Sequence record: OQ718158.1
DNA: 64,000 nt
Direction: 5' to 3' (one strand)
Origin: Escherichia phage vB_Ec-M-J
A model generated the notes under the pieces. It had not been told where the DNA came from. It ran no database searches and saw only the letters and a list, made by a program, of their open reading frames with translations. Shown in pieces: positions 5,482 to 26,631 of this stretch. The position numbers and the translations under genes were made by a program. Positions within the stretch are counted from its first letter, which is position 1. Every line of letters starts with the position of its first letter.

Positions 5482-5513
5482 GGGTTGACTTCGGTCAACC
5501 TTTTCTTTATACT
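5482..5513 (+). terminator. fused terminator-promoter module
   Basis: GGGTTGAC-TTCG-GTCAACC then T-run and TATACT. Confidence 0.6.
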
Positions 5514-5520
5514 ATAAATA
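5513..5520 (+). promoter_or_regulatory. T4-type late promoter motif TATAAATA (tentative)
   Basis: exact TATAAATA about 25 nt upstream of 5542 start. Confidence 0.3.
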
Positions 5521-5541: not shown

Positions 5542-7053
5542 ATGAAATCTATGGAGAGAAATCAAATGCCAGGTCAATTTACTGATAAAAATGGCGGGAA
5601 CATGGCAGGTCACTCTGATAAATGGAGTGAACGCAATCGTCGTCAAAATAGCTACCAAGCAGGACAGGGGTCACGTGGTTCACGTAATCAAGGGACAGGT
5701 TTAGCTGGTAAGGCAAACGCAGAAGCAGGTGAAGTTAAGAGTACTGAGAACATGACTGAGCTAGAAAAGCTACGTTATGTTAACTCATTAGGTCTTCTTA
5801 ACGCAACACAGAAACAACGCCTTGCTGATATGGAACGTGCTGAGAAAGAACAAGAAGTTCCTAAAGAAGAACCAAAACCAGAAGCTCCTAAAGCAGCTAA
5901 CCCTGTTAAAGAGTTATCTGATAACTTAGGTAAGATCTTTGCTAACAAACCACAGTTGATTCAGGGTATTGTCAAAGCACTACAGGCAGTTCCTAAAGAA
6001 GAACTCAAAGGTAAAGCACAAGCTGTACTTGATGCAATGAAAGGTAATAAGAGCACTGAACCTACTGAAGTATTCAGTACTATCATGCGTGCACTTGAAG
6101 GTACACACAAAGAAGATTCCAAAGAACCTGAACAGGGTGAAGCAAGTCTTGATGGTATTCTTAAAACTTTTGATAGTATTGGTAAAGCAGACCGTGCTAA
6201 TGCCCAGCAAGTCAAGAATGTACTGGCTAAACTTGAAAACCGTTTAGAAGGTAAAGATGATAAGGTTAAGCTCGTATCAGATGCAGTTAACAGTGCACTT
6301 AAATCTTATGTACAAGGTGAGAAAAGTCGCTTCGTAACAGCTATGGATGCTGCATTCAACACTATGAAAAAGTATGAAGCAGAACATGGTGAGAAAGTGA
6401 CACCTGATGGATATCTACTACGTAAAGATGAAGAAGGTGCAGTTGAACAGAAAGATGTTGAGCCTGAGCAAGAAGATCTACCTGATACCGTTGATATGGA
6501 TGGATACATTCATCGTCCTGAGATGGAAGAGTTTGGGTCAGATAAAGAAGGTTTTGAACATGCAATGGCAGTATATAAAGCATTAGTTAAAAATCCAGAT
6601 TATGCTAACCGTTTTGTTGACGAGTTTGATAGTGCATGGAATAACTACAAAGAGAAAGGTTATGATTTCCCTGCTGAAGCTGCATTCTTTGAACTTGGTA
6701 AACTATTAGCTAAACATGGAATTGACGTTGGTTCATCTGATTCCGAAGGTATGGAAGAAGAACATCTTGAAATGACTGATAAATCAATTCATGAACTTCA
6801 AAAGTTAATGATGTGGATATCCGAGATTGGTAAAAAAGCAGGTGCTGATAGTAAAAGTATCAACAAAAATATTAGTTGGATTAAAGATAATGTTGGTAAC
6901 AATGCTCGTAAACTTCAAAAGGCTTGGGCTGATTTAGTAAATGGTGCAGATGATGTTGACATTGAATCACCAGAAGCATATGAGTATGCACTAACTACAC
7001 TTGATAACTCATTCAAAGAGTACGACCGTGGTGTTGGAAAGGATAAAAAATAA
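5542..7053 (+). CDS. acidic K/E-rich 503-aa protein (hypothetical; candidate late/virion protein)
   Basis: longest plus-strand ORF in part 1; TATAAATA at 5513; shares SLGLL motif with 4311..4694. Confidence 0.7.
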   Translation: MKSMERNQMPGQFTDKNGGNMAGHSDKWSERNRRQNSYQAGQGSRGSRNQGTGLAGKANAEAGEVKSTENMTELEKLRYVNSLGLLNATQKQRLADMERAEKEQEVPKEEPKPEAPKAANPVKELSDNLGKIFANKPQLIQGIVKALQAVPKEELKGKAQAVLDAMKGNKSTEPTEVFSTIMRALEGTHKEDSKEPEQGEASLDGILKTFDSIGKADRANAQQVKNVLAKLENRLEGKDDKVKLVSDAVNSALKSYVQGEKSRFVTAMDAAFNTMKKYEAEHGEKVTPDGYLLRKDEEGAVEQKDVEPEQEDLPDTVDMDGYIHRPEMEEFGSDKEGFEHAMAVYKALVKNPDYANRFVDEFDSAWNNYKEKGYDFPAEAAFFELGKLLAKHGIDVGSSDSEGMEEEHLEMTDKSIHELQKLMMWISEIGKKAGADSKSINKNISWIKDNVGNNARKLQKAWADLVNGADDVDIESPEAYEYALTTLDNSFKEYDRGVGKDKK

Positions 7054-7124: not shown

Positions 7125-7376
7125 ATGTTTAAATATGTTTTATTTTCACTTGTATTGTTTACTGATATAGTTTATAGTACTGAATACCAGTGCTCCATTG
7201 CTAGACAGGAGTTTAGAAACGGTGAGTTCTATACCAAGTCTTACACTAGAGGATTGGTACATGACAATAATAAAACTATAGGGTTCAATGCATTTGATAA
7301 CAAAGATCGATATACGTCTGGAATACTATCTGAACGTAAGTCTGATATACTAGGTATCGAGCGTGAATTCCGGTGA
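7125..7376 (+). CDS. secreted hypothetical protein (signal peptide)
   Basis: N-terminus MFKYVLFSLVLFTDIVYS; GAGG RBS. Confidence 0.5.
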   Translation: MFKYVLFSLVLFTDIVYSTEYQCSIARQEFRNGEFYTKSYTRGLVHDNNKTIGFNAFDNKDRYTSGILSERKSDILGIEREFR

Positions 7377-7742: not shown

Positions 7743-7777
7743 AAGGGTTGACTTCGGTCGGCCTTTTTTGCTATAAT
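7743..7777 (+). terminator. fused terminator-promoter module
   Basis: GGGTTGACTTCGGTCGGCC then TTTTTTGCTATAAT. Confidence 0.6.
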
Positions 7778-7803: not shown

Positions 7804-8217
7804 ATGTTAAAAGTTATTTTCCGTTCTATCAGTTCATTACTTCTTATGATTAGTTCAGTTTGTTATGCAAATGAAGTATCTGATTTATTTGAGAAGAATT
7901 ACCCAACTGCACAAGAGATGGGTGTTTTAAAATGCAAGCTAACTTCGTACAACATCATCGGCAGTAAACTTGTACTAGAACATGAACGTAGTACACCAAT
8001 CCCTCTAGTAGAAGAAGGTAGTACCTTTAGCTTCAAGTACGGGGTGAACGTAACATCTGGTGTAATGAACAATGTTGATGCAGAGACTGGTTCAACATGG
8101 AGTACTAGCGGTAAAGATGTGTTTCATCGTATGCGTGAAAATGGTAAACTGAAGTACGTATATGAAAGTTCATTCATGAAACGTGTATTCATTATAAAAA
8201 ATTGTGTACCAGCATAA
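7804..8217 (+). CDS. secreted hypothetical protein (signal peptide)
   Basis: N-terminus with hydrophobic core before CYA; GGAGG RBS. Confidence 0.55.
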   Translation: MLKVIFRSISSLLLMISSVCYANEVSDLFEKNYPTAQEMGVLKCKLTSYNIIGSKLVLEHERSTPIPLVEEGSTFSFKYGVNVTSGVMNNVDAETGSTWSTSGKDVFHRMRENGKLKYVYESSFMKRVFIIKNCVPA

Positions 8218-8228
8218 GGAACAACATC

Positions 8229-8504
8229 ATGCGTTCATTTGAAAACTTAATAGGTAAACTTCGCTTACAAGAAATTGAAGCTGATGTGAAGGAATTATCT
8301 GAAACTAAGAGTTACATTCATTTAGATGAACTGTTTATTAAGTACGGTGAGATTGGTTTTAAGTCATTATTTGTGTTTGTCATGAAGGTGCATAGTTTAA
8401 AGTACTTTGATTTGAGTTCAAAAGACGGACAACCAAATCTGTATTACATGTATTATCTTAAGAACATAGACGAAGCTAATACATTATTCTTAGAATATAT
8501 GTAG
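8229..8504 (+). CDS. hypothetical protein
   Basis: track ORF trimmed to ATG after AAGGAACAA. Confidence 0.5.
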   Translation: MRSFENLIGKLRLQEIEADVKELSETKSYIHLDELFIKYGEIGFKSLFVFVMKVHSLKYFDLSSKDGQPNLYYMYYLKNIDEANTLFLEYM

Positions 8505-8513
8505 GGGTAAAAA

Positions 8514-8852
8514 ATGGAACAACATTTTGAATTAATTAATAAGGTATCATTTTATGTAGTATCATTAATTTGGGTGTATTACATGTTTTGTTACATTATT
8601 GCATTCTTCCGATACACGACCTTGTATCAACGCATATACTACGATGCACCCATTTCATTTATGATGTTCTGTGCATGTACGTGGGGGATAATTGAAGCAC
8701 TGGTATGTGGATATAGTACTGACGAATTAAATCTCGTATCGGGGTTGACATTACTAACAATTGCCATTATGATAGCTACTGTTCCGATATTTTTGCTCTT
8801 TAAACTGCTTCATCGTATCGATGAGTGGCGTAATAAAATCCCTGAAAAGTAA
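8514..8852 (+). CDS. small multi-pass membrane protein, family A paralog 1
   Basis: about 112 aa, hydrophobic, C-terminal basic tail ending KIPEK; tandem with two paralogs. Confidence 0.6.
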   Translation: MEQHFELINKVSFYVVSLIWVYYMFCYIIAFFRYTTLYQRIYYDAPISFMMFCACTWGIIEALVCGYSTDELNLVSGLTLLTIAIMIATVPIFLLFKLLHRIDEWRNKIPEK

Positions 8853-8861
8853 GGATTGATA

Positions 8862-9203
8862 ATGATTTTTTACACTAATGCGTTTGCTTATGCCGTTGCA
8901 TCAATCTACATTGTGTACTTCTTATTTGGTGGAGTACTGTACTTCTTTAAGTACAAAACATTGTTTAACCGAATGTATCCAAATCACCCAATTGTAGTAG
9001 TACTTTTGATGATTTCTGTTGCTCACATCATTGTAGAAACAATAATGGGTATCAGTGCAGTACATTACAGTCTAGGTACTATTGTGATTATTACTATGAT
9101 CATCGCATACATTTTAGTAATGGGTTCTGGTTTATTTGGGAATGTAGCAATGAAATTGTATAATCGAATTAAAACCTTACGTGATAATCTACCGGAGCGT
9201 TGA
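8862..9203 (+). CDS. small multi-pass membrane protein, family A paralog 2
   Basis: track ORF (TTG) trimmed to ATG; tail ends NLPER. Confidence 0.6.
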   Translation: MIFYTNAFAYAVASIYIVYFLFGGVLYFFKYKTLFNRMYPNHPIVVVLLMISVAHIIVETIMGISAVHYSLGTIVIITMIIAYILVMGSGLFGNVAMKLYNRIKTLRDNLPER

Positions 9204-9204
9204 G

Positions 9205-9549
9205 ATGTATAATTTAAATTTAATCTCATATATCATAACAACACTGTTTACTTTCTATACCTTTGTCGGTATACTCCTACTGTACTTTAAATTTTATAAA
9301 CTCTTTGACCGTTTATATCCATCATTGGAACATGAATTCTTATTGGTGATGTACATCTGTTTAACGTGTATGTCTACATTTTTCACTGTATTTGATGGTA
9401 TCATCGGTATTAAAGCTGAAGATCCAAATGGCAGTACACTTGTTGCCTTTATCCTGGTAGGATTCTTCGGTACTTATATCACTTTCATTTCAACATGGTC
9501 TGTGGTTGATTATCTCATTAGATTACGAGATAAAATGCCAAATCGATAG
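9205..9549 (+). CDS. small multi-pass membrane protein, family A paralog 3
   Basis: track ORF (GTG) trimmed to ATG right after upstream stop; tail ends KMPNR. Confidence 0.6.
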   Translation: MYNLNLISYIITTLFTFYTFVGILLLYFKFYKLFDRLYPSLEHEFLLVMYICLTCMSTFFTVFDGIIGIKAEDPNGSTLVAFILVGFFGTYITFISTWSVVDYLIRLRDKMPNR

Positions 9550-9558
9550 GGGATTGCT

Positions 9559-9816
9559 ATGTTTGCATTGCGTAATAAAAATACAAAAGAGATTCTATGT
9601 ATCTCAACAGTATGGGATTGTGCAGGAAGTGAAATGATCCTCGAAGAAGGTTCAGGTGATTGTGTTTATGTTGTTCATGATCGTCGCGAACTGGAATCAT
9701 TACTTGATGAATTTAATGCTGGTGGAAATCCTAAAAGTACTCAATTCCCTGAGATCAGGAATCCAGCACCACCAGGCTCTTATGAAATTCTACAACTGTG
9801 GGAGATGGATAAGTAA
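9559..9816 (+). CDS. hypothetical protein
   Basis: 85-aa track ORF; GGGG RBS. Confidence 0.5.
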   Translation: MFALRNKNTKEILCISTVWDCAGSEMILEEGSGDCVYVVHDRRELESLLDEFNAGGNPKSTQFPEIRNPAPPGSYEILQLWEMDK

Positions 9817-10196
9817 TGCGACAAATGCACAAAGTAACCGAGCTAAACAAGCGTCTGATTAAACAATCAATGTTTGAGGATAAAGAGTCTTACTATAACT
9901 TCAAACGTGCTGTAGAGGCTGCTATCCACATTCAGAAGCTTAAAGATAGTGGATGTATTATTCTCGAAAATGGTTCTGACGTTGTTACTGATGACTTCAG
10001 TGTAGCGTTTGATGTTTCACCTGATGGTTCGCTATCAATGCCACGCTTAGGGACTGGTGACATGACTGTGTGGGTAGGTTTCACTATGGGGAATGTACCA
10101 GGCACGGTGTATGTAGATGATGCTGAGTTGAAAGAAAGCTTTAAAAACTTATCGCATCTTGAACCACAATACGCACATGAAATGAATTTATTTTGA
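9816..10196 (+). CDS. hypothetical protein
   Basis: 126-aa ORF; start overlaps upstream stop (TAATG). Confidence 0.55.
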   Translation: MRQMHKVTELNKRLIKQSMFEDKESYYNFKRAVEAAIHIQKLKDSGCIILENGSDVVTDDFSVAFDVSPDGSLSMPRLGTGDMTVWVGFTMGNVPGTVYVDDAELKESFKNLSHLEPQYAHEMNLF

Positions 10197-10197
10197 G

Positions 10198-10225
10198 TTG
10201 ACAAACTCATTCAGTACTGTATAAT
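10198..10225 (+). promoter_or_regulatory. sigma70-type promoter followed by 5' GC hairpin (10235..10255)
   Basis: TTGACA-N16-TATAAT; hairpin GGGGATGAACTTCTCATCCCC. Confidence 0.6.
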
Positions 10226-10272
10226 GTTTATCAAGGGGATGAACTTCTCATCCCCACAATCGAGGAATTGTC

Positions 10273-10827
10273 ATGATTACTTTTAAGAAAACTGCTAACC
10301 ACATCCATGAGATCTACATTAACGGTCACAAAGCTGGCCTTCTTCGTTTACTCGCCCATCATCCGAATATTACCGTATCTGATAATGAACCTAAAGATTG
10401 GCGTGTATTTTTCTTTGGAAAGTACAGTGATTTTCAAGTATCAAACCTGAAGAACATTCGTTCAGTATGCACGTTAACTGAAATTAAAGAAAAGTTAACC
10501 AAAGCATTGAAAACTAATCCAGATGGTGTTCTTCCACCTGATAACTTTGTAGAGAAAGGATATGCCTTAGCTCATTTCAAAGATGGTACTATTCAATCTA
10601 TCAGTACTGAATATGAATATCAATGGACTGAGTACTTCACTTATGGATCGCGTAATACATTGATGGCTTCACGTAGTAAATTGGAAGAAGTACTGACTCG
10701 TATGAATGAACGCGAGCGTCAGTACTATGACAAACCAGAAATGTGGAGTTCAACTTACATTGACCGTATTGACTATGTTATTATGACTCCAATCTTTGAC
10801 ACTGCTTACTATGATTCTTTGAAATAA
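10273..10827 (+). CDS. hypothetical protein
   Basis: 184-aa ORF behind TTGACA-N16-TATAAT promoter and 5' GC hairpin. Confidence 0.6.
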   Translation: MITFKKTANHIHEIYINGHKAGLLRLLAHHPNITVSDNEPKDWRVFFFGKYSDFQVSNLKNIRSVCTLTEIKEKLTKALKTNPDGVLPPDNFVEKGYALAHFKDGTIQSISTEYEYQWTEYFTYGSRNTLMASRSKLEEVLTRMNERERQYYDKPEMWSSTYIDRIDYVIMTPIFDTAYYDSLK

Positions 10828-10838
10828 GGATAACTTAT

Positions 10839-11015
10839 ATGAAACTACGTACTCGTAATCGACTGATGGATGCACTGTACCATGAACAGCTTTCACTGAA
10901 TGAAGTGAAGCGACAGTTAATGTACACATATCTGTTACCCGCTCGCATTGCAAAACAACGTGCTAAAGAATTGCTGAAAGAAGCAATCGAGTACTGGGAA
11001 TCTGATTCGTACTAA
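10839..11015 (+). CDS. small hypothetical protein (58 aa)
   Basis: hand-found ORF below track threshold; AAGGA RBS. Confidence 0.35.
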   Translation: MKLRTRNRLMDALYHEQLSLNEVKRQLMYTYLLPARIAKQRAKELLKEAIEYWESDSY

Positions 11016-11043
11016 TTGTCACGTTAATTAAGTGAGGCGATAA

Positions 11044-11295
11044 ATGAAAATTTTATTAGTTCTAATACTACTAATTGTTTTACCATTTACGTTAGTATCC
11101 CCTGAACTTGCATGGAATGTGTTTGTGTACTTACTATGTACTATGATAGTAAATGGTATCTTGTTCTTAGTTCTATTCATAAATGGAATAGGACACGGTG
11201 GAGGATGGACCAGTACTGCTGATATTGTACATAAAACCACTATGTCTTTATTTGTAGTGTGGAATTTATTCTGGACTTGGTTTGTGTTCTTCTAA
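11044..11295 (+). CDS. small membrane protein (hypothetical)
   Basis: 83-aa hydrophobic ORF; GAGG RBS. Confidence 0.5.
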   Translation: MKILLVLILLIVLPFTLVSPELAWNVFVYLLCTMIVNGILFLVLFINGIGHGGGWTSTADIVHKTTMSLFVVWNLFWTWFVFF

Positions 11296-11305
11296 TTAAA
11301 AAAAT

Positions 11306-11677
11306 ATGAATATAGATTTGAAAGGTGCAACACGAACTGTCATACTCATTGGGGAATATGCTATCAAGATTCCAACCTTTAAAAGTTGGAAGCTATTCTT
11401 AACAGGGATGATAGCTAACCTCAATGAACGTTCGTGGATGCAGTACTCCAAGCGTAGTGATACTGGTATCTGTCCTACTTTGTGGTCATCATGTACTGGA
11501 CTAGTAACTGTACAGAAACGTTGTAAGCCAGTACAACATAGGGGTTTATTTTGGGTGGAGTTGTGTGCTTTAGCATTGAATTCAGAGTTAAGTACTGACT
11601 TCTTCTATTCAGATGCGAAGCCAGAAAACTTTGGGTATCTGTGTGGTAAGTTGGTTAAACTTGATTATGGAGATTAA
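11306..11677 (+). CDS. mini protein-kinase-like protein (hypothetical)
   Basis: YAIKIP (beta3 Lys-like), DAKPEN (catalytic-loop-like), KLDYGD (DFG-like) in kinase order; weak RBS. Confidence 0.45.
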   Translation: MNIDLKGATRTVILIGEYAIKIPTFKSWKLFLTGMIANLNERSWMQYSKRSDTGICPTLWSSCTGLVTVQKRCKPVQHRGLFWVELCALALNSELSTDFFYSDAKPENFGYLCGKLVKLDYGD

Positions 11678-11678
11678 T

Positions 11679-11948
11679 ATGTACGCATTGTATAATAAAG
11701 AAAAGAAACGATTTGCTAAGGTTGAAATTTCGATTGATACATTTGATATGTTGGAGTACTGTATTGTAACGGACTTATATGCTAACTTGTATTACGTTCT
11801 TGATGACGTATCAGTACTGCAACGATTGCTTGAGAATTCCAAAAGTCAATGCCAGGGCATCCATGATGGTTCATCTTATGAAACACCTGAGTGTTCCTAC
11901 GGCTATCTGGACGGGTATGAGATTGTGAAGTTGGGGATTGTTGAATAA
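11679..11948 (+). CDS. hypothetical protein
   Basis: track ORF trimmed to ATG immediately after upstream stop. Confidence 0.45.
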   Translation: MYALYNKEKKRFAKVEISIDTFDMLEYCIVTDLYANLYYVLDDVSVLQRLLENSKSQCQGIHDGSSYETPECSYGYLDGYEIVKLGIVE

Positions 11949-11960
11949 ATGGATTAAACA

Positions 11961-12374
11961 ATGAAGAAGTGTATCACGTGTAATATTGAAAAAGACATTA
12001 GTGAATTTGGTATAAGAAGTGATACTGGGAAACATAGAAATACATGCAAAGGTTGTAGTAATATTACCAGTAAGAAAACCAGAAATAAAAAAACTGATGT
12101 CAAAAAACTTGAAGAAATCAAAAGAAAAAATAAAGATTTCATGACCAGAGTTAAATCATTTTATGGTTGTAGTGTTTGTATGATGAAGTATCCAGAATGT
12201 TTAGACTTTCACCATCTTGACCCTAATACCAAAGAACATACACCAAGTTCTATGTTCAGTAAAAGTCGAGATGCTATCAAAGATGAAATTCGAAAGTGTA
12301 TGATTCTTTGTTCTAATCACCATCGCATGGTACATTCTGGTAGACTATGTTTGATTGAAAGAAAAAAGGGTTGA
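11961..12374 (+). CDS. HNH endonuclease (homing-endonuclease-like)
   Basis: Cys pairs plus HHLDP...CSNHHRMVH, an HNH-type motif; stop lies inside terminator hairpin. Confidence 0.75.
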   Translation: MKKCITCNIEKDISEFGIRSDTGKHRNTCKGCSNITSKKTRNKKTDVKKLEEIKRKNKDFMTRVKSFYGCSVCMMKYPECLDFHHLDPNTKEHTPSSMFSKSRDAIKDEIRKCMILCSNHHRMVHSGRLCLIERKKG

Positions 12375-12400
12375 CTTCGGTCAGCCCTTTTTGCTATAAT
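12366..12400 (+). terminator. fused terminator-promoter module
   Basis: AAAGGGTTGAC-TTCG-GTCAGCCCTTTTTGCTATAAT; HNH gene stop lies in stem. Confidence 0.65.
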
Positions 12401-12428
12401 CATTTCATCGAAACGAGAGGATGAATAC

Positions 12429-12944
12429 ATGACACGCATTAACTTAGTACACGTTAAAGAACTTGCTGACCAACATCTGATGGCTGAATATCGTGAACTC
12501 CCACGTGTGTTTGGTGCTGTACAAAAACATGTTCAAGCACGTAAGCGAGTCCGTGATTTCAAAATTAACAGTACTTACCTGTTAGGTTCAGGTCATGTAA
12601 CATTCTTCTACAACAAGTTATTGTACTTACAGAAGCGTCATATTGATATTGTTAACGAATGTTTGCGTCGTGGTATGAAGATTCAAAACACTGAAGTAAA
12701 CGACATTAGCGGATTCCCTGCTGAGTTTTGTAATGACTACGTACCATCGGAGTCAGAGATTAAAATGTCTCGTGAGCGTTTGATTGAGAAGCTCCAGATG
12801 AAGCCTACGTGGTATAAATTTACTGACGTTGAACGCCCACAGTACGTTAAAGATATGCAGGACGTAAGTAGTAATATAGAATCTAGTACTGATATGTTAG
12901 ACGAAATTGAAGAACAAATCAAAGATGAAATGAATAATTATTAA
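12429..12944 (+). CDS. denV: endonuclease V, pyrimidine-dimer DNA glycosylase (T4 DenV homolog)
   Basis: N-terminus [31 protein letters not shown] matches T4 DenV as recalled from memory. Confidence 0.85.
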
Positions 12945-12982
12945 AGGTAAGGGTTAACTTCGGTCACACAAAGGAACATAAC

Positions 12983-13177
12983 ATGTTATTAGTATATTCA
13001 AAGCGTTTCTGGATTTCTTTTATTGTACTATCGCTTATCGGCTTCGGTGTGAGTATACTCTTTTCGTGGGATGAATTGGGTACATGGTATTATGAAGTTC
13101 CGTGGTACATGAAGATAGCTCCTTGTTATGCGGCATTGTTCGTGTCATTCCTTATTGTTGTCTTCAGCGAGGATTAG
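12983..13177 (+). CDS. small membrane protein (hypothetical)
   Basis: 64-aa ORF with two hydrophobic segments. Confidence 0.45.
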   Translation: MLLVYSKRFWISFIVLSLIGFGVSILFSWDELGTWYYEVPWYMKIAPCYAALFVSFLIVVFSED

Positions 13178-13283
13178 TTGATGTAGTAGGTGCTACACCA
13201 AAGTATTTGGATATTTGAGATATAAACATTGACACCTGTTCTATCTTTCTGTATTATGTACATCACCAAATGAGGAATACCAC

Positions 13284-13643
13284 ATGGCATCTTTAAGTGA
13301 AATCGCGGAATACAACCCACTAACAATCTCAACAATTCAACGTACAAAAACTTTTTATTTCCGTCCTGCTGATGGATGGAAACGTGGAATGAATGGTGAC
13401 TATCGAGTACTGGAAGATGCACTCGTCGAGCGTATCAACTCTGAACTACATAAGTATGAAGGTGTTAAAGTTGTGCGTTCAACTTCTCGTTATTTTGAGT
13501 ACTACATTGAGTCTTCAACTGTAAATGAAAACTCATCATTCTCGGTGGATAACACTGATATTCTTCGCAATGCAGTTGGTCTGTTATGCAACATTGCTGA
13601 GGAAATGGGATTAACTATTACTACAATGAGTGAATTAGAATGA
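13284..13643 (+). CDS. hypothetical protein
   Basis: 119-aa ORF behind TTGACA-N17-TATTAT promoter; GAGGAA RBS. Confidence 0.55.
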   Translation: MASLSEIAEYNPLTISTIQRTKTFYFRPADGWKRGMNGDYRVLEDALVERINSELHKYEGVKVVRSTSRYFEYYIESSTVNENSSFSVDNTDILRNAVGLLCNIAEEMGLTITTMSELE

Positions 13644-13837
13644 TTAAAACTTTTATTCTTACTATGGTATTTGGGTCTTATGGGTATGGTGGTGGTGTAG
13701 CAACAGTTGAGTATCCATTATACGAAGATTGTAAGGCCGCCGCTGAAGTGTTTGTAAAAACAACCAAAGATTTAGCAACTGTCACTGATGCAAAAGCTTG
13801 GTGTACAACTAAAAATACACCAGAAACTAAGAAATAA
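13640..13837 (+). CDS. small hypothetical protein
   Basis: 65-aa ORF; ATGA overlap with upstream gene. Confidence 0.5.
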   Translation: MIKTFILTMVFGSYGYGGGVATVEYPLYEDCKAAAEVFVKTTKDLATVTDAKAWCTTKNTPETKK

Positions 13838-13843
13838 AAAATA

Positions 13844-13879
13844 AAGGGTTGACTTCGGTCAGCCCTTTTTGCTATAATT
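13844..13879 (+). terminator. fused terminator-promoter module
   Basis: same 36-nt module as at 12366 and 15256. Confidence 0.65.
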
Positions 13880-13904
13880 ATTTCATCAACTGATGAGGTA
13901 ACAA

Positions 13905-14141
13905 ATGAAACTATCTTTTATACGATTAGCTGAATTTTTCGGTACTAATGTAATTACTCTACAACAAATCGCAGATAATACATCATTAACTACTCAAGAA
14001 GTACTTGACTTAGATGTAATTCAGTGCGATAATACTTCCATCGATTACAAAGAAGGTCTTGTCGAAAAAGATAAGATTCAAGCTAAGATTAATGGTGCTG
14101 GACGGGTTCAGTACTGGAAAGGAGTTTTAAGTAATGTATAA
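13905..14141 (+). CDS. hypothetical protein
   Basis: 78-aa ORF after terminator/promoter module; GAGG RBS. Confidence 0.5.
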   Translation: MKLSFIRLAEFFGTNVITLQQIADNTSLTTQEVLDLDVIQCDNTSIDYKEGLVEKDKIQAKINGAGRVQYWKGVLSNV

Positions 14142-15249
14142 ATTTTATTTTAATGACGATGGTGAAAAAGTTTATTTCCACGAAGAACTTGGTATGCGTT
14201 TTGAATGGATGCACGCGGAAGACATTGAACAATTTTCTTGTGGAAAAACTGCCAAAGACCACGTTGATGACATAGAGGCATCATTCTATGATTTAGGAAT
14301 AACTGATATCACAATTTTGGGTATTGGTGTGTCAAACGCAGCTGAATTTGGTATTTCTGGAAATTCACATGCTAAAATCGTCTTAAAAAAAGACGATATC
14401 ATCTATAATAATTATAAAATAACTGCTTTTAAAACAAAGCTTAATAAGTTGTCAGAAGGTGATGGTATTAAGTTATCTTTTTCATACACAAATGATAATT
14501 ATTACTATTACGTAACCAAACTTGCAAAATTACAATCTAAAAACTGTCATATACATCCAAATGAAATAATTGATAATGGAATTTCATCTAAAATAAAATT
14601 CACATATAGTGATGGTGTAACTGTACCTAGAAGAATAAATGATATATTGACAAAAACTAAAATTAATGTGAGTTATTTTGTAGATGATGATATTAGAGAT
14701 GGGGTAGCTTTAAATCGATGTAGAGAATTGAAATATCATTTTCAGTCTATTTACAAGCATGAGAATGGACGATACTTTGTAAAATATGAGTGTACTAGAG
14801 GTCATCAATGTGATCAAGACTATCATGCATTTACTGGTACAGCGAAGCAATCATGTGGTGTGTGTTCTAAACTTAAGACACACTCATATGGTCATAATGA
14901 TACCATGAAATTTTTAAGGAATTTGCATATTACAATAACGGAAAAAACTTTCAATGATTTGAAAGATAAAATGAAACTTCCATATGATTTTTATGTGAAA
15001 GATTTAAATGCGTTGATAGAATATGACGGTAGTGATCATTTTAAAAATAAGTCATCTCGAAACAATTTTATTGATCGTCAGAAGAAAGATAAAATGAAAA
15101 CGGAGTACGCAATCAACAATGGATATAACTTCCTACGAATTGCATATTATGAAGGTCATCTTGAAGTACTGGAATCTTTCCTGAAACTCATCGAAGAGAA
15201 CCCAGGAAAGCAAATCGTACAGATTTATGGTGATGTGAAAATCATCTAA
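14134..15249 (+). CDS. putative nuclease (zinc-ribbon plus PD-(D/E)xK-like C-terminal domain)
   Basis: C-terminus IEYDGSDHF...DRQKKDKMK...GYNFLRIAY resembles restriction-endonuclease-like fold; Cys/His cluster. Confidence 0.5.
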   Translation: MYKFYFNDDGEKVYFHEELGMRFEWMHAEDIEQFSCGKTAKDHVDDIEASFYDLGITDITILGIGVSNAAEFGISGNSHAKIVLKKDDIIYNNYKITAFKTKLNKLSEGDGIKLSFSYTNDNYYYYVTKLAKLQSKNCHIHPNEIIDNGISSKIKFTYSDGVTVPRRINDILTKTKINVSYFVDDDIRDGVALNRCRELKYHFQSIYKHENGRYFVKYECTRGHQCDQDYHAFTGTAKQSCGVCSKLKTHSYGHNDTMKFLRNLHITITEKTFNDLKDKMKLPYDFYVKDLNALIEYDGSDHFKNKSSRNNFIDRQKKDKMKTEYAINNGYNFLRIAYYEGHLEVLESFLKLIEENPGKQIVQIYGDVKII

Positions 15250-15255
15250 AACAAA

Positions 15256-15290
15256 AAGGGTTGACTTCGGTCAGCCCTTTTTGCTATAAT
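15256..15290 (+). terminator. fused terminator-promoter module
   Basis: same module; GCTATAATCATTTCATCAACTGATGAGG continues to RBS. Confidence 0.65.
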
Positions 15291-15318
15291 CATTTCATCA
15301 ACTGATGAGGATAACGAA

Positions 15319-16089
15319 ATGACCAGAGAAGCACGTAGCATTCAAATCCAGAAAAACTTCAACTCCATGATGGTTGCTCTTGAGTGTTTGCTCGACGATA
15401 ACAGTACTGTAAAAAGTATGGTTGTCAGCGGTGCACCTGGTGTTGGTAAGACTTACACCCTGTCACAACGCCTCCAGAAAGCTCATGACGCAGCAGAATG
15501 GAACGTAGCTACTATCAGTGGTAAGATGACTACTCTTGCTCTGTACGAAGTTCTGTACAAGAATCGTCACAGCACTAACGTATTAGTACTGGATGATATG
15601 GACAGCATCTTTGATTCAGAAGACGGTATGAACCTGCTCAAAGCAGTACTGGACAGCGGTAAACGTACTGTGTCTTACATGACTAGCTCTAAGTACTTAA
15701 CTACCAACGGTATCCCTAACAGCTTTGATTTTAACGGTCGTATCGTATTCATTACTAACAAAGATTTAGCACTGAATGCTAAAGCTAAAACCAAAATGTC
15801 TGCTCACTATGCTGCTCTTATGTCTCGCTCTGTGTATGTTGACTTACAGATCCAGACTAAAAGCGATATCATGATTCACATTGAAAACGTAATGAACAAG
15901 ACCAACATCCTGTCAACTAAAGGTGTTAATAGTAATGGTAGCAAAGCAATCCTGAATTGGATGCTGAAACATGAAGATGCACTTCGTGCCCCTTCACTGC
16001 GTATGCCTCTGTTGATTTCAGCAGTATACAACAACAACCCGTATGATTGGGAAGAGCAGTGCGAAAACTTGTTCCTTGAGAAAATTTAA
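15319..16089 (+). CDS. P-loop NTPase (ATPase)
   Basis: Walker A GAPGVGKT and Walker B-like VLVLDDMD. Confidence 0.65.
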   Translation: MTREARSIQIQKNFNSMMVALECLLDDNSTVKSMVVSGAPGVGKTYTLSQRLQKAHDAAEWNVATISGKMTTLALYEVLYKNRHSTNVLVLDDMDSIFDSEDGMNLLKAVLDSGKRTVSYMTSSKYLTTNGIPNSFDFNGRIVFITNKDLALNAKAKTKMSAHYAALMSRSVYVDLQIQTKSDIMIHIENVMNKTNILSTKGVNSNGSKAILNWMLKHEDALRAPSLRMPLLISAVYNNNPYDWEEQCENLFLEKI

Positions 16090-16156
16090 TTACATGTATT
16101 GACAGCACTACACTATGGTAGTACTATAACTTAATATTCACCACCGGAGATACGAT

Positions 16157-16495
16157 ATGCTTGAGTTTTTTAATTCAGATACAATGCTTAGTATTACTTT
16201 GATTTATCTGTTTGGTTTTTTCTTTTATCATGCACTAGTTGTAGTACTATGGTATTTTAAAAAGAAAATTGTTTTCAAACTGTATCCTGATGGAAATATT
16301 TCACTACTTCTTTTCACTATTATCCAAGGTATGTTTGCAATTGTTGGTCTTATCGCACACTTAATTTATTGTGCTAATCCACAGTTGAACTCAATATCAC
16401 AATATATTGTTTTCCTTGGATTACTAATTTGGGTGCTGATATACTTGTTTAATCTCATCATTAATGGTAGAGCAAAAATTCGTGGGGACTTCTAA
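16157..16495 (+). CDS. small multi-pass membrane protein, family B paralog 1
   Basis: 112 aa, hydrophobic; first of 7 tandem paralogs with coupled starts. Confidence 0.6.
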   Translation: MLEFFNSDTMLSITLIYLFGFFFYHALVVVLWYFKKKIVFKLYPDGNISLLLFTIIQGMFAIVGLIAHLIYCANPQLNSISQYIVFLGLLIWVLIYLFNLIINGRAKIRGDF

Positions 16496-16842
16496 TGTTT
16501 GAATCTTATCTTGAGTTTTTAAAGAGTAGTTCTGTTGCACATTCAATTGCAGGGATTATTCTAACAGGTTATGTAACATTTTGGGTAGTTATGTTTCTAG
16601 GATGGTATTTTAAACGACAATTCTATAAGCGTAATGGTGAAGATTTTATGAATTCTTTCATTAATCAATCGTTGTTTGCATCAACATTGATAGCATGTAT
16701 TGTAGCAACACTCACAGGAAAGGTACTGCCAGCATTCTCCGCAGTTTACGGTACATTGGGTATGATATGTGTAGTTTTTTACTTGACCATTAAACTTTGT
16801 TGTGTTATGATTGAACTTCGAAACAAGATACCGGAGGAATGA
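16495..16842 (+). CDS. small multi-pass membrane protein, family B paralog 2
   Basis: tail ELRNKIPEE like family A; TAATG overlap. Confidence 0.6.
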   Translation: MFESYLEFLKSSSVAHSIAGIILTGYVTFWVVMFLGWYFKRQFYKRNGEDFMNSFINQSLFASTLIACIVATLTGKVLPAFSAVYGTLGMICVVFYLTIKLCCVMIELRNKIPEE

Positions 16843-17177
16843 TGGAATATTTTTTACACTTACTGCCGTGGTATATGAAAGTTAGTACTATGTACTATAT
16901 TCTTAGTGCTGGATTCTACTTTCTGATGTGGTTCTTCAAACGACCAATTTCAGTATTCATCTCTGATAACATGCTGCAATTAAAATTACACGCATGGTTT
17001 TTTATGGCGATGTTTATGCCTATTATTCACTACTCAATGATTAGTAGAGGTTTACGTTCTAATGGTGAACCAATTATATTAGTATTCTATTGGGGTTCAA
17101 CTATTGCATATGTAAGTTTGTTGTTGATCCCAGCCGTTCATAAATTGCGTTCTAAAGTTCCTGATGCGAGGTACTAA
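16839..17177 (+). CDS. small multi-pass membrane protein, family B paralog 3
   Basis: tail HKLRSKVPDARY; ATGA overlap. Confidence 0.6.
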   Translation: MMEYFLHLLPWYMKVSTMYYILSAGFYFLMWFFKRPISVFISDNMLQLKLHAWFFMAMFMPIIHYSMISRGLRSNGEPIILVFYWGSTIAYVSLLLIPAVHKLRSKVPDARY

Positions 17178-17491
17178 TGGATATCGTAACATTGATTTAC
17201 ACGTTGTATTCATTCTATTTTATTATGTGTTGGGTTGGATTTTTATTTGTACTGAAAATGTTTGATTATGTTGAAAAACAGATAAAAGAATTTTGTATTC
17301 CTTTTATTGGGTCAACCATAATTAGTATTACTTGTTTGTATTATTTGGTATGTGATCCACCTGTTAATACAGCAATGATTGACTTCATGTTATTACCAAC
17401 AACTGTTATTTTTTTATGTAGTCTGATGCCACCGATTAGTCGTGGGCTAACCGAATTTAGACGCAATCAAAAGCGTAAACGAGGGATGTGA
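17177..17491 (+). CDS. small multi-pass membrane protein, family B paralog 4
   Basis: 104-aa hydrophobic ORF; TAATG overlap. Confidence 0.55.
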   Translation: MDIVTLIYTLYSFYFIMCWVGFLFVLKMFDYVEKQIKEFCIPFIGSTIISITCLYYLVCDPPVNTAMIDFMLLPTTVIFLCSLMPPISRGLTEFRRNQKRKRGM

Positions 17492-17859
17492 TGGAAATTG
17501 CACTTATTATATTAACTGCTATGTTGTTTATTAGTACAATTGTTATTATTGGCAAGTTCTTCTGTGTATCCTTCTTGGAAACCGTATACGATGAAATTGC
17601 TGATGATTATGAATTACATGCGGGATTTTTTACTACGTATTGGATTAGTTTATTACTACTTATCACTGTATGGATTTTACATATATTCAAATGGGGTATG
17701 GTAGATGGTGATCCAGTACTGGCAATTATCTGTGTAGTGTTTGGTCTACTCGGTGGTGCTGTCCATAATCTGATGGTAATTTGGCAAACCGTACAATATG
17801 TATTAGTTCCACATTTTCAGAGAATGCACCAAAGCATCAAATACCGCAAACGAGGATAA
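17491..17859 (+). CDS. small multi-pass membrane protein, family B paralog 5
   Basis: track ORF 17488 (GTG) trimmed to ATG overlapping upstream stop. Confidence 0.55.
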   Translation: MEIALIILTAMLFISTIVIIGKFFCVSFLETVYDEIADDYELHAGFFTTYWISLLLLITVWILHIFKWGMVDGDPVLAIICVVFGLLGGAVHNLMVIWQTVQYVLVPHFQRMHQSIKYRKRG

Positions 17860-17860
17860 C

Positions 17861-18223
17861 ATGAATAATATTGAATTATCTTTTATTGGTCAATTAATGG
17901 TAATGGCGTATACATTTATCTTCTCACTGAATGCATTCGTGTGCATTGGGAAGTACTTCCATAAGCGACCATTATCAAATATATATGATGTAATACAAAG
18001 GAGATATAGTCCAGCATATACTGTGTTGAGTACAGCATTCAATTTTGGTTTTATTCTAATGCTGGTTGCATTATTAACATCGAGTTCGAATTTTATAACA
18101 TTTGGTATTATGGTATGTTCACTAACACTGTGTGTGGTTATTCTCTGTGCATCAGTTGAGTTGATGGCGTGGATGTATAATAAGATTTCCGAAATCCATG
18201 AGCGTTTAGGTAAGAGGAACTAA
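17861..18223 (+). CDS. small multi-pass membrane protein, family B paralog 6
   Basis: 120-aa hydrophobic ORF; GAGGA RBS. Confidence 0.55.
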   Translation: MNNIELSFIGQLMVMAYTFIFSLNAFVCIGKYFHKRPLSNIYDVIQRRYSPAYTVLSTAFNFGFILMLVALLTSSSNFITFGIMVCSLTLCVVILCASVELMAWMYNKISEIHERLGKRN

Positions 18224-18224
18224 A

Positions 18225-18596
18225 ATGAGTTATCGTGAAATATTTTCGATCATTACTATTATTGTGTTTAGTTTAGGTTCTTTGATTTGGTTATTGTATT
18301 ACTTCTGTGTAACCCCAGTATATAATATGCTAAATTCAGTACGCTCTGATGTTGGTATTGTTTCTTTTATTATCTTCATGGCATATTATATGCTAAGTAT
18401 CACAGGTTTGGTTTTGGTTGTTATCTTTGACCTTGGACCGAATCAAGATGGTATGGAGGTGTGGGAATTGATAACGATGTTTGCATGTATGATACCTGCA
18501 TTTGGTGTATGTGCTGGTGTATTTTATGGGTTATGTAAAGGTGTGAACTACTTAAAAAATATCCACAATACTATTCGTAAAAAACGTATGTTATAA
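18225..18596 (+). CDS. small multi-pass membrane protein, family B paralog 7
   Basis: 123-aa hydrophobic ORF; followed by bidirectional hairpin. Confidence 0.55.
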   Translation: MSYREIFSIITIIVFSLGSLIWLLYYFCVTPVYNMLNSVRSDVGIVSFIIFMAYYMLSITGLVLVVIFDLGPNQDGMEVWELITMFACMIPAFGVCAGVFYGLCKGVNYLKNIHNTIRKKRML

Positions 18597-18603
18597 TAAA
18601 AAA

Positions 18604-18626
18604 TCCAGTACTATAATAGTACTGGA
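18604..18626. terminator. bidirectional hairpin between convergent genes
   Basis: TCCAGTACTATAATAGTACTGGA in A/T-rich context. Confidence 0.55.
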
Positions 18627-18632
18627 TTAATT

Positions 18633-19757
18633 TTAATTATCTAAGCCACCAATTACACTGAACTGTGTGGTAACGTCTGAACTATTATCTATGTAAGTTC
18701 TTCGACCAACATAATATAGTTGTCCTTTTGCTTGAATAAAAGTTACGGTCCCTGTATTGAATGTTATAATATCATTGTATGTAATGTCAGGTGGTAGTGC
18801 TGCTGATAATGCAGTAACAGCACTTAATGCAGCACTAGCACTACCATTTATACCAGCAGCAATACTACCAGTACCATAGAACTTATTATCTTTACCAATG
18901 AATACGTTGGCTGATGCTTGTGTAGCTGATGTTATTGCCTTACCAATTTGGAATGCGGTTCCTATGGTGTATGGTGTGCTCCTGGCTGCGTCTATGCTTT
19001 GTGTATATCCATCCCCTAGCTGACCATTAACTTTGTCACCACATGAGTATAGAGTACCATTGAGGCTGTATATGATCCCACGGTTAGAGAAGCTAACAGC
19101 TTCTGCATTAGTCCATACTGGTGCGGTGTATGAGTTTACACGACTAGCGGTAGTTCCTAGACCTAGTATACCATATGTGTTATCACCACATCCAAACCAT
19201 TGTCCAGAACTGTTTTGATAGAACACTGAACGTTCTGTTGATTCCATGCGTACAGCATCCACAGCACCACTTTTAACGAACGAAGTGGATGAGGATGTAG
19301 TACCAGTACCCAATGCACCATAAGTGTTTGTACCAATCGCATAGATTGATCCTAGTGGTGTCATAACACGTATGCAGTTATATCCCAATTGAACTTTACA
19401 TTCAAATAGGTTGTCCCATATTTCAGGAACAGCAGAAAATAAATTTGTAATTTCGAACCATGATGTTGTCGAACCAGTTAATCCTATACTGCTTTTGTTT
19501 CCTAAAATGAAAACAGTTTTGTCCTTCTTAATTATCCATGATGATAGAAAGCCTATCTCACAGCTATGAACATTTGATTCGATTTGGGTAATATAATACT
19601 TAACGGTGTTATCACCCATAAATGCCGCAGCACCAGATGCAAAAAGGTTTCCAGTTTGTTTATTTAAAATGTAGTTATTGTTTCCATATACACTAACATC
19701 ATAAGAACTTTCTTGTTTTTCGTTCCCATAATCAAATAACAATACGAAAGGTAACAT
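18633..19757 (-). CDS. beta-propeller protein, RCC1-like repeats, divergent leader MLPFVLLFDYGN
   Basis: 374 aa; G/S/T/N-rich; motifs YGALGTG, YGILGLG, NGQLGDG. Confidence 0.75.
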   Translation of the reverse strand: MLPFVLLFDYGNEKQESSYDVSVYGNNNYILNKQTGNLFASGAAAFMGDNTVKYYITQIESNVHSCEIGFLSSWIIKKDKTVFILGNKSSIGLTGSTTSWFEITNLFSAVPEIWDNLFECKVQLGYNCIRVMTPLGSIYAIGTNTYGALGTGTTSSSTSFVKSGAVDAVRMESTERSVFYQNSSGQWFGCGDNTYGILGLGTTASRVNSYTAPVWTNAEAVSFSNRGIIYSLNGTLYSCGDKVNGQLGDGYTQSIDAARSTPYTIGTAFQIGKAITSATQASANVFIGKDNKFYGTGSIAAGINGSASAALSAVTALSAALPPDITYNDIITFNTGTVTFIQAKGQLYYVGRRTYIDNSSDVTTQFSVIGGLDN

Positions 19758-20518: not shown

Positions 20519-21652
20519 TTAAACTGGTGGAGAATTATATGGCTCAAATTTATAAGTTGTCGTAGCAGTACCAGCAATGGCGTTGTTAGCTAGTATGTAC
20601 ATAGTCCTATAGTCGATTACTACCACAGTAATACTACCACCAAAAGCATAGTCTGTTATGTTATTAGTGTTGAATGGTAAATTAGATGAACTGGTCCATG
20701 TATTAGCTGTTGTGCTATTTGTACCATTGGAATAGCCGACACTAGATGCACCAGTTGTCCATAAGTTTCCATCATTGAACAACGATACATGGTTAGCTGT
20801 ATATGATTTATTAGGTATAGAACTATCAATTGGCGTATTCCAAACTTTAGTAACCCATGTTGTGACGGCTGTATTATTAGTAACACCATTACCTAACGAA
20901 CCATTTATTGGTATACCTCTTATATAAGAAGTGTTAGTACTAGGGTCAACATATCCAAATGTATATGTATCAAATGCAAATTGAAAACAATCAGAACTCG
21001 GTAATGTGTACAGTAATGTATATGAAGACGTGATTATTGATGAATTTGTACCGTTCACGCCTTGGTATAAAATACCACTACCCAATATTTGATTATTATT
21101 TTTTGTTATAGCAGTCATAGATGGATATGTTTTTACTTCACGCACATCATTAGTTACATATGTTTGTGTTGATAATGCAACATTACTACCATTACCAATA
21201 ACACCTGTATTTGCACCGCTTCCATAAAGTGAACCATCATTCAAAAGTACCATTGTGGCATTACTATTTCCAGTAATTGTTTTAATATTACTAACATCCA
21301 CCGCAGCAAATACAGTTGATGTTAAATCAGTGAAACGTGTATAATGTGATGTTGTGCCATTGATTGGTGTCGCAAAACCAGAATACAAAATTCTATTTTC
21401 TTTGGTAATAAGGAATGTTCCAGTAACACCGTTTGAATGGATATCAATAATATTATCGCCCATTAATACCCAATCACTTACGAATGTTGTACCAGCACCC
21501 AACCCATATGTCGTATTGTATCCACGTCCATACACTCTACCATCACTGAGTAATGTTACCACACATTGACCACCACCACCAAGGATAACTTTTTGGATAG
21601 TACTCTTTACTTTTATATTCCCGTACTTAACCATTCTTGCAAAAGGTAACAT
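20519..21652 (-). CDS. beta-propeller protein, RCC1-like, leader MLPFARMVKYGN
   Basis: 377 aa; conserved leader and upstream cassette with AAGGAGG RBS. Confidence 0.8.
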   Translation of the reverse strand: MLPFARMVKYGNIKVKSTIQKVILGGGGQCVVTLLSDGRVYGRGYNTTYGLGAGTTFVSDWVLMGDNIIDIHSNGVTGTFLITKENRILYSGFATPINGTTSHYTRFTDLTSTVFAAVDVSNIKTITGNSNATMVLLNDGSLYGSGANTGVIGNGSNVALSTQTYVTNDVREVKTYPSMTAITKNNNQILGSGILYQGVNGTNSSIITSSYTLLYTLPSSDCFQFAFDTYTFGYVDPSTNTSYIRGIPINGSLGNGVTNNTAVTTWVTKVWNTPIDSSIPNKSYTANHVSLFNDGNLWTTGASSVGYSNGTNSTTANTWTSSSNLPFNTNNITDYAFGGSITVVVIDYRTMYILANNAIAGTATTTYKFEPYNSPPV

Positions 21653-21696
21653 AATTCCCTCCTTTATTCTTTATACTATATTTAATCAAAAAGAAA

Positions 21697-21715
21697 AGCC
21701 AGTACTCTGTACTGG
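21697..21715 (-). terminator. inter-cassette terminator hairpin of propeller array (representative)
   Basis: GCCAGTACAGAGTACTGGC followed by TTTTCTTTTT on minus strand; same design between most paralogs. Confidence 0.6.
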
Positions 21716-21722
21716 CATTATT

Positions 21723-22883: not shown

Positions 22884-22896
22884 TTTTTTCTCCTTA

Positions 22897-24045: not shown

Positions 24046-24116
24046 AATTCCCTCCTTTATTCATTATACTATATTTAATCAAAAAGAAAAGCCAGTACTC
24101 AAGTACTGGCATTATC

Positions 24117-25295: not shown

Positions 25296-25370
25296 ATATT
25301 TTTCCTCCTTTATTCATTATACTATATTTAATCAAAACGAAATGCCAGCACTCAAGTACTGGCATTATTG

Positions 25371-26561: not shown

Positions 26562-26631
26562 ATTTTCCTCCTTTATTCATAATACTATATTTAACCAAAA
26601 AGAAAAGCCAGTACTTGATACTGGCGTAATG

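Follow-up and report, generated by a model that had tools for sequence, protein, structure and literature searches.

Two tandem gene arrays of Escherichia phage vB_Ec-M-J encode one superfamily of predicted three-pass inner-membrane proteins found in Rak2-like jumbo phages

What use might a giant phage make of ten small membrane proteins encoded in two tandem gene arrays? The question is raised by Escherichia phage vB_Ec-M-J (OQ718158.1), of which a stretch of 64,000 nt, referred to here as the window, was analysed; coordinates follow the numbering of the window unless another genome is named. Three open reading frames (ORFs) at 8514-9549 make up array A and seven at 16157-18596 make up array B. 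An earlier note on this DNA had described 3-copy and 7-copy sets of genes for proteins of 104-123 aa, and all ten ORFs were recovered with these coordinates and lengths when ATG starts were taken as annotated in relatives. Databases already list them as hypothetical proteins, and PHROGs divides them among seven families that it does not connect; in the literature on Asteriusvirus, 121Q, PBECO4, RaK2, phAPEC6 and NrdC.10 we found no publication describing the genes, their function or their transcription. New in the present analysis are the unification of the seven PHROGs and, as read from sequence, a membrane topology, a cytoplasmic motif, the two loci, a collinear array beside an NrdC.10-like gene and a predicted early expression class. 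The best explanation of the whole, which we put forward tentatively, is that of an early three-pass inner-membrane superfamily acting as immunity-type protectors.

Sequence relationships and predicted topology of the ten proteins

A hidden Markov model (HMM) built from all ten proteins retrieved its members at E 4e-31 to 4e-22, the next ORF of the window following at E 0.033. Per-group HMMs connected A1-A2-A3, B1-B2 and B5-B6-B7. Neither these models nor all-against-all BLAST connected B3 and B4 to other members, and for this reason leave-one-out profiles were made from the wider family, each lacking the orthologue group of the member to be scored, with 500 decoys per protein that preserved local hydropathy. 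All ten proteins scored 16-50 bits against such profiles; for nine members none of the 500 decoys equalled the score, and for B3 (16.3 bits) one decoy reached it. Two subtypes can be distinguished, the first ('FFK ... LRxKIP') comprising A1-A3 and B1-B3 and the second ('GKFFCV ... H..I+.+K+G') B4-B7, and hhalign aligned one with the other end to end (93.4% probability, E 2.6e-7, 105 columns). The division cuts across the array boundary, with A1-A3 clustering with B1-B3. By the leave-one-out profiles and the hhalign comparison both arrays are one superfamily, and the description of two tandem families in the earlier note has to be given up.

At the level of PHROGs, nine of the ten paralogues match seven families (19285, 19454, 19046, 27396, 33258, 26405 and 27618, all labelled 'unknown function') at E 1e-46 to 1e-60, except that A3 reaches 19285 at only 4e-4; for B6 no PHROG match better than E 0.046 was found. 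Cross-matches tie both arrays and the seven families together. Scans of the ten proteins against Pfam, NCBIfam and PADLOC gave no significant match, and Foldseek with the AlphaFold model of A1 returned no match in the PDB and only two in BFVD at E ~7-9, one of them a 'putative membrane protein' of phage CBB. The best match in a profile search of PDB sequences, to the transmembrane (TM) region of a G-protein-coupled receptor (E 0.01), was judged non-specific.

All ten genes lie on the plus strand. The proteins of array A, A1 (8514-8852, 112 aa), A2 (8862-9203, 113 aa) and A3 (9205-9549, 114 aa), end in the tails RNKIPEK, RDNLPER and RDKMPNR, and the first two belong with phrog_19285 (E 2e-48 for A1). 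Array B is formed by B1 (16157-16495, 112 aa, tail RAKIRGDF, phrog_19454), B2 (16495-16842, 115 aa, tail RNKIPEE, phrog_19046 with cross-matches to 19454, 27396 and 16874), B3 (16842-17177, 111 aa, tail RSKVPDARY, phrog_27396), B4 (17177-17491, 104 aa, tail RRNQKRKRGM, phrog_33258), B5 (17491-17859, 122 aa, GKFFCV motif, tail HQSIKYRKRG, phrog_26405), B6 (17861-18223, 120 aa, tail HERLGKRN) and B7 (18225-18596, 123 aa, tail HNTIRKKRML, phrog_27618).

Each protein has three Kyte-Doolittle hydrophobic segments, in line with the multi-pass hydrophobic character ascribed to them in the earlier note; the lowest values (1.35, 1.42 and 2.11) belong to B3, the most divergent member, in which TM1 and TM2 are weakest. 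Among 38 diverse members, lysine and arginine residues number 12 in the N-terminus, 118 in loop 1, 22 in loop 2 and 168 in the C-terminal tail, and from this distribution a topology with three TM segments, N-terminus out and C-terminus in (N-out/C-in), is strongly predicted. An inner-membrane location, with the short acidic N-terminus in the periplasm and the basic loop 1 and basic tail in the cytoplasm, is directly predicted. The AlphaFold models of A1 and B5 (predicted local distance difference test, pLDDT, 79 and 69.5, respectively) share a layout of TM1, a short loop-1 helix, TM2, a loop, and a long TM3 with a C-terminal helix.

The best-conserved columns in the same 38 sequences (A1 numbering) are F31, F32, R33, Y42, R/H106, K108, I109 and P110, most of which belong to loop 1, to the C-terminal tail or to the end of TM1 that faces the cytoplasm. 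F32 is invariant, position 31 is F or Y, position 33 is K, C or H (R in A1), and position 106 is R or H in 37 of the 38. The R-x-K-I-P tail would thereby be part of a conserved cytoplasmic face. The superfamily can be recognized by a length of ~100-127 aa, three TM segments, an FF[K/C] motif ending TM1 and a C-terminal [R/H]-x-[K/N/R]-[ILMV] tail. The exact pattern R-x-K-[IML]-P-[EDN]-[KRE], which had been attributed to several of the proteins, is present in 3 of the 356 window ORFs of at least 40 aa (A1, A3 and B2), always as the final seven residues, compared with a mean of 0.005 matches in shuffled ORF sets. A looser pattern extends to seven of the ten members and to one unrelated window ORF.

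Shine-Dalgarno sequences of the GGAG/GAGG type stand 5' of all ten starts at the correct spacing, and translational coupling of adjacent array genes is directly predicted. Overlapping stop and start codons, reported earlier as the rule, were found at four of the eight internal junctions (1-nt overlaps, TAATG or TGATG, at B1/B2, B2/B3, B3/B4 and B4/B5), and gaps at the other four (1 nt at A2/A3, B5/B6 and B6/B7; 9 nt at A1/A2). In B1-B6 the final 2-3 codons (CGA GGN, AAG AGG, CCG GAG GAA) also provide the following gene with its Shine-Dalgarno sequence, which places a dual coding constraint on part of the basic/Gly tail at the array B junctions (16470-18225). The idea that the basic tail as a whole is a by-product of the Shine-Dalgarno sequences holds partly, for the final 2-3 residues of B1-B6. 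It fails for A1 and A3, where the Shine-Dalgarno sequence follows the stop codon, and for B7, which has no downstream gene, since all three keep the tail; and it fails for the R/H-x-K-I core, which lies 4-8 codons before the stop and outside the Shine-Dalgarno window.

Distribution and evolution of the arrays

The closest relatives of the region 8000-19000 by megablast are EC.P1 (98.5% identity) and WPEC3 (96.9%), and the relatives found in this way are ~350-385-kb Escherichia jumbo phages of the 121Q/PBECO4/CMSTMSU group, in the genus Asteriusvirus within the 'Rak2-like' myoviruses; the window is thus from a jumbo phage of the Asteriusvirus type. A profile search of 1.84 billion representative proteins yielded 35 clusters (50% identity) at E <= 1e-3, whose members are 99-127 aa long save for one 56-aa fragment and all but two of which align end to end. 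Named members come without exception from ~310-385-kb phages of Enterobacterales, namely Asteriusvirus, the Salmonella phages Munch, SE_PL and the SD phages, Klebsiella phages RaK2 and fENko-Kae01 (a relative of fEgEco12), and Erwinia phage Hallingskeid. By these matches the family is confined to Rak2-like jumbo phages. The complete genome of fEgEco12, 98.9% identical to the window across array B, encodes exactly ten members (E <= 2.5e-17; next ORF 0.11) at the same two loci, and the HMM detected no additional member elsewhere in the window or in the rest of the fEgEco12 genome.

Array B lies directly 3' of a gene for a nucleoside triphosphatase (NTPase) in the window, 121Q, JNE01, RaK2, Munch and Hallingskeid, which represent five lineages, and in several of them the array is again followed by a terminator and by convergent RCC1-like genes. 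Its copy number is 7 or 8 in Asteriusvirus (8 in 121Q), 8 in JNE01, 8 in RaK2, 3 in Munch and 10 in Hallingskeid. The order in JNE01 is B1, B2, B3, B4 (duplicated), B5, B6, B7, with all members reciprocal best hits of those in the window, and that in RaK2 is B2 (duplicated), B1, B3, B4, B5, B7. Since the paralogue types are kept in order across genera, they pre-date the split of these genera. Array B is therefore ancient, with a stable core of types and with duplication, truncation and loss in single lineages. Phage 121Q has an extra B1 copy and a B4 orthologue split by a frameshift into 59 + 55 aa (16452-16767 of the compared stretch, genes 228/229), which is either a pseudogene or a sequencing error of the reference genome, and truncated copies are found in some Salmonella phages (SD phages). 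Within Asteriusvirus the array occurs in ~2.53-kb and ~2.88-kb forms and in two allele groups, at ~98% and ~84% identity. Array A has three members in the window, WPEC3, 121Q and fEgEco12, and a single A-like gene is found at a similar position in Munch.

The ratio of nonsynonymous to synonymous substitution rates (dN/dS) against 121Q is 0.10-0.45 for every member, so each is a real, constrained gene. The array proteins are 63-90% identical to those of 121Q, most neighbours from 9816 to 16089 standing at 91-99%; dS is also raised in the array genes, and mosaic exchange is therefore indicated. Conservation is highest in the N-terminus, TM1 and loop 1 (85-91% identity, dN/dS 0.11-0.14), and TM2, TM3 and the tail are the most variable parts (70-72%, dN/dS 0.26-0.53). 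Between JNE01 and the window, both from E. coli phages, the array proteins are ~25-45% identical. With copy number and sequence both differing between related phages, the genes do form the diversified paralogous set that the earlier note had proposed. Rak2-like jumbo phages are under development as therapeutics that target E. coli, Klebsiella, Salmonella and Erwinia, yet for over 80% of their genes no function has been assigned; here, ten 'hypothetical proteins' per genome become one defined family with predicted properties that are directly testable.

Predicted early expression and possible functions

Array A belongs to an operon (7804-10196) headed by a sigma-70-type promoter at 7748-7777 on the plus strand (TTGACT-18-TATAAT, TG extended, 11/12 consensus), 27 nt from the start codon at 7804. 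Another, at 16099-16127 (+; TTGACA-17-TACTAT, with AGTACT palindromes), lies in the 67 nt that separate B1 from the gene 5' of it and is kept in WPEC3, 121Q and the divergent JNE01. All strict sigma-70-type matches in the window are intergenic and lie 27-57 nt before a start codon, and the T4-like late motif TATAAATA precedes genes in the window only at 4278 and 5520 (genes 4311 and 5542). In the related phage CBB, the short ORFs of one region, which are regarded as early, host-takeover genes, are distinguished by RpoD-like promoters, and the late structural genes by motifs of the ATAAATA type (PMC5259590). From these motifs we expect the arrays to be expressed early, with synthesis of the proteins within the first minutes after infection and their insertion into the host inner membrane. 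A transcriptome for this phage group was not found in the literature.

Predicted early expression, inner-membrane location and strain divergence would fit a role in exclusion or immunity. It is possible, and we say so with some reserve, that the proteins are immunity-type protectors of the inner membrane of the infected cell, the paralogues recognizing different membrane-embedded threats. According to this proposal, the proteins would be synthesized early from host sigma-70-type promoters and inserted N-out/C-in into the inner membrane, where each paralogue would contact a target of its own within the membrane through its faster-evolving TM2/TM3. Candidate targets are the machinery by which a superinfecting phage ejects its DNA or brings it into the cell, and host effectors of abortive infection that act on the membrane. 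The common cytoplasmic face (FF[K/C], the loop-1 helix and the [R/H]-x-K-[ILM]-P/K tail) would provide a shared activity or the contact to a partner. If membrane protection is indeed their role, the arrays would bear on host range, on interference between phages in cocktails and on how giant phages secure their long infection cycle.

T4 Imm is a single-gene product of about 83 aa with two TM segments. Like Imm (PF14373) and other small exclusion proteins that lytic phages make early and place in the membrane, the array proteins are small and predicted to be early and to lie in the inner membrane, and as with Imm their genes stand among short early ORFs in the genome of a large lytic myovirus. 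They differ from Imm in that there is no sequence relationship, the Imm profile (PF14373, Imm_superinfect) finding no match among the ten proteins in the Pfam scan, and in being ten paralogues of 104-123 aa with three TM segments and a conserved surface on the cytoplasmic side. Among the anti-phage defence effectors of PADLOC, the highest-ranking match pairs B6 with a '2TM effector' model (E 0.12). Tandem paralogue families that evolve by birth and death are known in T4 Alt/ModA/ModB and in the multigene families of poxviruses and African swine fever virus (ASFV). With these, and with the RCC1-like array next door, the present arrays share the evolutionary mode only, that is, tandem organization within an accessory or early region of a very large viral genome, with lineage-specific duplication, loss and pseudogenization; unlike the T4, poxvirus and ASFV families, they encode three-pass bacterial inner-membrane proteins, in an unusually stable order of types.

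Several points weigh against protection. No exclusion or immunity homologue was found, either as a Pfam, NCBIfam or PADLOC match or as a specific structural neighbour, and the timing of expression is read from promoter motifs only. No sign of diversifying selection is seen either in dN/dS, which stays below 1 throughout the proteins, or in the distinct types, which different genera retain in collinear order, unlike what a rapidly churning arsenal would show. Fast evolution is, moreover, common in TM helices and often has trivial causes. Finally, the conserved surface is cytoplasmic, and T4 Imm and like injection blockers are thought to act at the periplasmic side. Homology and fold searches favour neither protectors, nor a complex, nor host-takeover factors, the last two of which are considered in the following.

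The stable order of types could also mean that the paralogues are subunits of one early hetero-oligomeric inner-membrane complex (a channel, scaffold or anchoring platform), perhaps operated or assembled by the co-transcribed NTPase, with the tails docking. The NTPase gene in question (15319-16089, +, 256 aa) encodes a P-loop/AAA protein of phrog_1250 (E 7e-103; 'unknown function') with weak AAA/STAND Pfam matches, whose RaK2 orthologue is annotated as nrdC.10-like; against PADLOC models it gave only P-loop-level matches (E ~1e-3), and no informative relative was found in the PDB. NrdC.10 itself is an uncharacterised AAA-like ORF of some T4-like phages (PMC1524935). A complex would agree with the shared order of distinct types, identified as reciprocal best hits, among Asteriusvirus, JNE01 and RaK2, with overlapping stop/start codons, which favour stoichiometric production, with conserved residues on the cytoplasmic face, and with the position of the NTPase gene directly 5' of array B in five lineages. 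This gene and the array are almost contiguous in RaK2, Munch and Hallingskeid, with a promoter cassette 5' of the NTPase gene, so that both form one operon there.

Opposed to this are the flexible copy number (from 3 in Munch to 10 in Hallingskeid, and both 7 and 8 in a single genus), the frameshifted B4 of 121Q and the location of array A in a separate operon ~6.6 kb upstream. Moreover, four distant homologues of the NTPase stand among unrelated neighbours, with no family HMM matches nearby, so the NTPase does not need these proteins and an obligate partnership was rejected. In WPEC3 the NTPase is 60% identical to that of the window whereas the flanking B genes are 91-100% identical, which shows that NTPase and array recombine independently within Asteriusvirus. 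We therefore regard a complex as rather unlikely, and as more doubtful still its elaborated form, in which a phage-built hetero-oligomeric assembly, installed in the first minutes and serviced by the NTPase via the tails, would be a membrane machine not recognised before in Rak2-like jumbo phages, acting for example as a conduit or anchoring platform or remodelling the membrane. A complex with the NTPase, if true, would give NrdC.10 its first functional context; to our knowledge NrdC.10, conserved in some T4-like phages, has been uncharacterised since annotation of the T4 genome.

Another reading, which we also consider unlikely, is that the proteins are host-takeover factors, each of which would bind a different host inner-membrane protein (transporter, division, envelope synthesis or protease) and inhibit or redirect it, so as to reprogramme the physiology of the cell and not to ward off defences or other phages. 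It draws on the predicted early operons in a short-ORF region of the kind regarded as takeover genes in CBB (PMC5259590), on a neighbourhood rich in small envelope-directed ORFs (at 7125, 7804, 13640, 11044 and 12983), and on the stable, individually conserved types, which would fit conserved host targets. B2 and B4 match phrog_16874 weakly ('membrane protein; moron, auxiliary metabolic gene and host takeover'), but this label stands for no tested function. None of the proteins resembles a characterised inhibitor, and the hosts share most inner-membrane proteins, yet the array proteins of JNE01 and the window have diverged to ~25-45% identity.

Class I holins such as lambda S105 have three TM segments, an N-out/C-in topology and a charged C-terminal tail. 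The array proteins resemble them in size (104-123 aa here, ~95-125 aa for class I holins and ~105-120 aa for the lambda S105 type), in three TM segments, in predicted topology and in the basic tail, and the earlier note had offered a holin or antiholin role as one option; class I-type holins, antiholins or lysis-timing proteins are nevertheless very improbable. Unlike such holins, the arrays are predicted to be early, with sigma-70-type promoters and no late TATAAATA motif upstream, exist in ten copies and are remote from the endolysin gene. In fEgEco12 they correspond to g560-562 and g573-579 (322.6-330.4 kb), 80-210 kb away from the endolysin Gp275 (118,272-119,198; homologue of 121Q gp532) and from the only holin candidate, Gp406c (246,852-247,514, 220 aa, weak HHpred match to the T4 T-type holin). 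Likewise, in 121Q the counterpart of the CBB endolysin is gp532, and the arrays comprise genes 207-209 and 224-232. No holin profile was matched in Pfam at E <= 1 or in PHROG at E <= 0.1, and in view of the promoters, the distant lysis genes and this result the resemblance is generic. A 'protein spackle' annotation in fEgEco12 (weak HHpred match, E 3.9) was set aside as it concerns a different gene.

That the ORFs are non-functional duplicates or annotation artefacts of a hyperplastic region, as the frameshifted copy in 121Q, the truncated ones in Salmonella SD phages and the mosaic nature of the region might suggest, is effectively refuted by purifying selection on every member (dN/dS 0.10-0.45) and by orthologues that persist across genera with conserved motifs and length, and Shine-Dalgarno sequences at the right spacing before every gene also argue against it.

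Neighbouring genes and regulatory elements

Two genes precede array A in its operon, one at 7804-8217 (+) with a signal-peptide-like N-terminus and one at 8229-8504 (+; phrog_37917); they share its strand, the gaps are 9-11 nt, and no match to a promoter or terminator lies between the genes, consistent with co-transcription. Two further genes, presumed to be co-transcribed, follow at 9559-9816 and 9816-10196 (+), and the next promoter is at 10198-10225. Signal-peptide-like N-termini are also present in the small ORFs 7125-7376 and 13640-13837, and the fEgEco12 counterpart of 7125-7376 (g556) is annotated as 'lytic conversion lipoprotein' (T5 Llp-like). The small two-TM ORFs 11044-11295 and 12983-13177 were both tested and fall outside the family.

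The NTPase gene is preceded by a sigma-70-type promoter at 15261-15290 (+) that is part of a terminator-promoter cassette. Such cassettes of ~35 nt, AAAGGGTTGAC-TTCG-GTCAGCCC-TTTTTGCTATAAT, are recurrent and combine a GC-rich hairpin and T-run (terminator of the preceding gene) with a sigma-70 promoter whose -35 element lies inside the hairpin arm; in the window they occur at 1111-1140, 7748-7777, 12371-12400, 13849-13878, 15261-15290 and 59767-59796. The cassette is conserved across phage genera, with related copies 5' of the NTPase gene in RaK2 (about 6620-6655 of the compared stretch) and Munch (about 10845-10880); in Hallingskeid a variant of the hairpin is present. Other promoters form a second class, TTGACA...AGTACTGTATAAT, with AGTACT/CAGTACTA palindromes in the spacer from -35 to -10, which comprises 16099-16127 and the promoters ending at 53419, 55115, 57105, 57374, 57805, 60226 and 60720. 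The bidirectional intrinsic terminator at 18602-18628, which has a 12-bp stem and separates B7 from the RCC1-like gene that converges on it (18633-19757), is made from the same CAGTACTA palindrome, which could be the binding site of a phage regulator. Among these otherwise sigma-70-type promoters the gene 5542-7053 forms a late-gene island: its product of 503 aa is annotated as a virion structural protein in relatives, and TATAAATA is found at 5513-5520, 22 nt upstream.

The segment 12983-15249, which holds an HNH/homing-endonuclease gene (14134-15249), is missing from fEgEco12, where denV abuts the NTPase gene, and WPEC3 and 121Q carry other endonuclease genes there; judged by these comparisons, the locus of this segment and the NTPase is a recombination mosaic. 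A 123-aa ORF at 11306-11677 matches positions 40-167 of the 225-position phrog_4301 and has the kinase-like motifs DAKPEN and DYG; together with the separate 89-aa ORF at 11679-11948 it may represent a small or split protein-kinase-like gene. Abutting array B, a convergent array of genes for ~370-aa RCC1-repeat proteins ('chromosome condensation regulator') extends from 18633-19757 (minus strand) onward to ~42 kb, numbers ~15 genes in fEgEco12 (g580-g595) and coincides with a reversed GC skew at ~20-42 kb. What looks like another large tandem family of small genes is found in fEgEco12 at 21091-27280 (g057-g084), where ~28 genes of ~65-85 aa follow one another with overlapping stops and starts.

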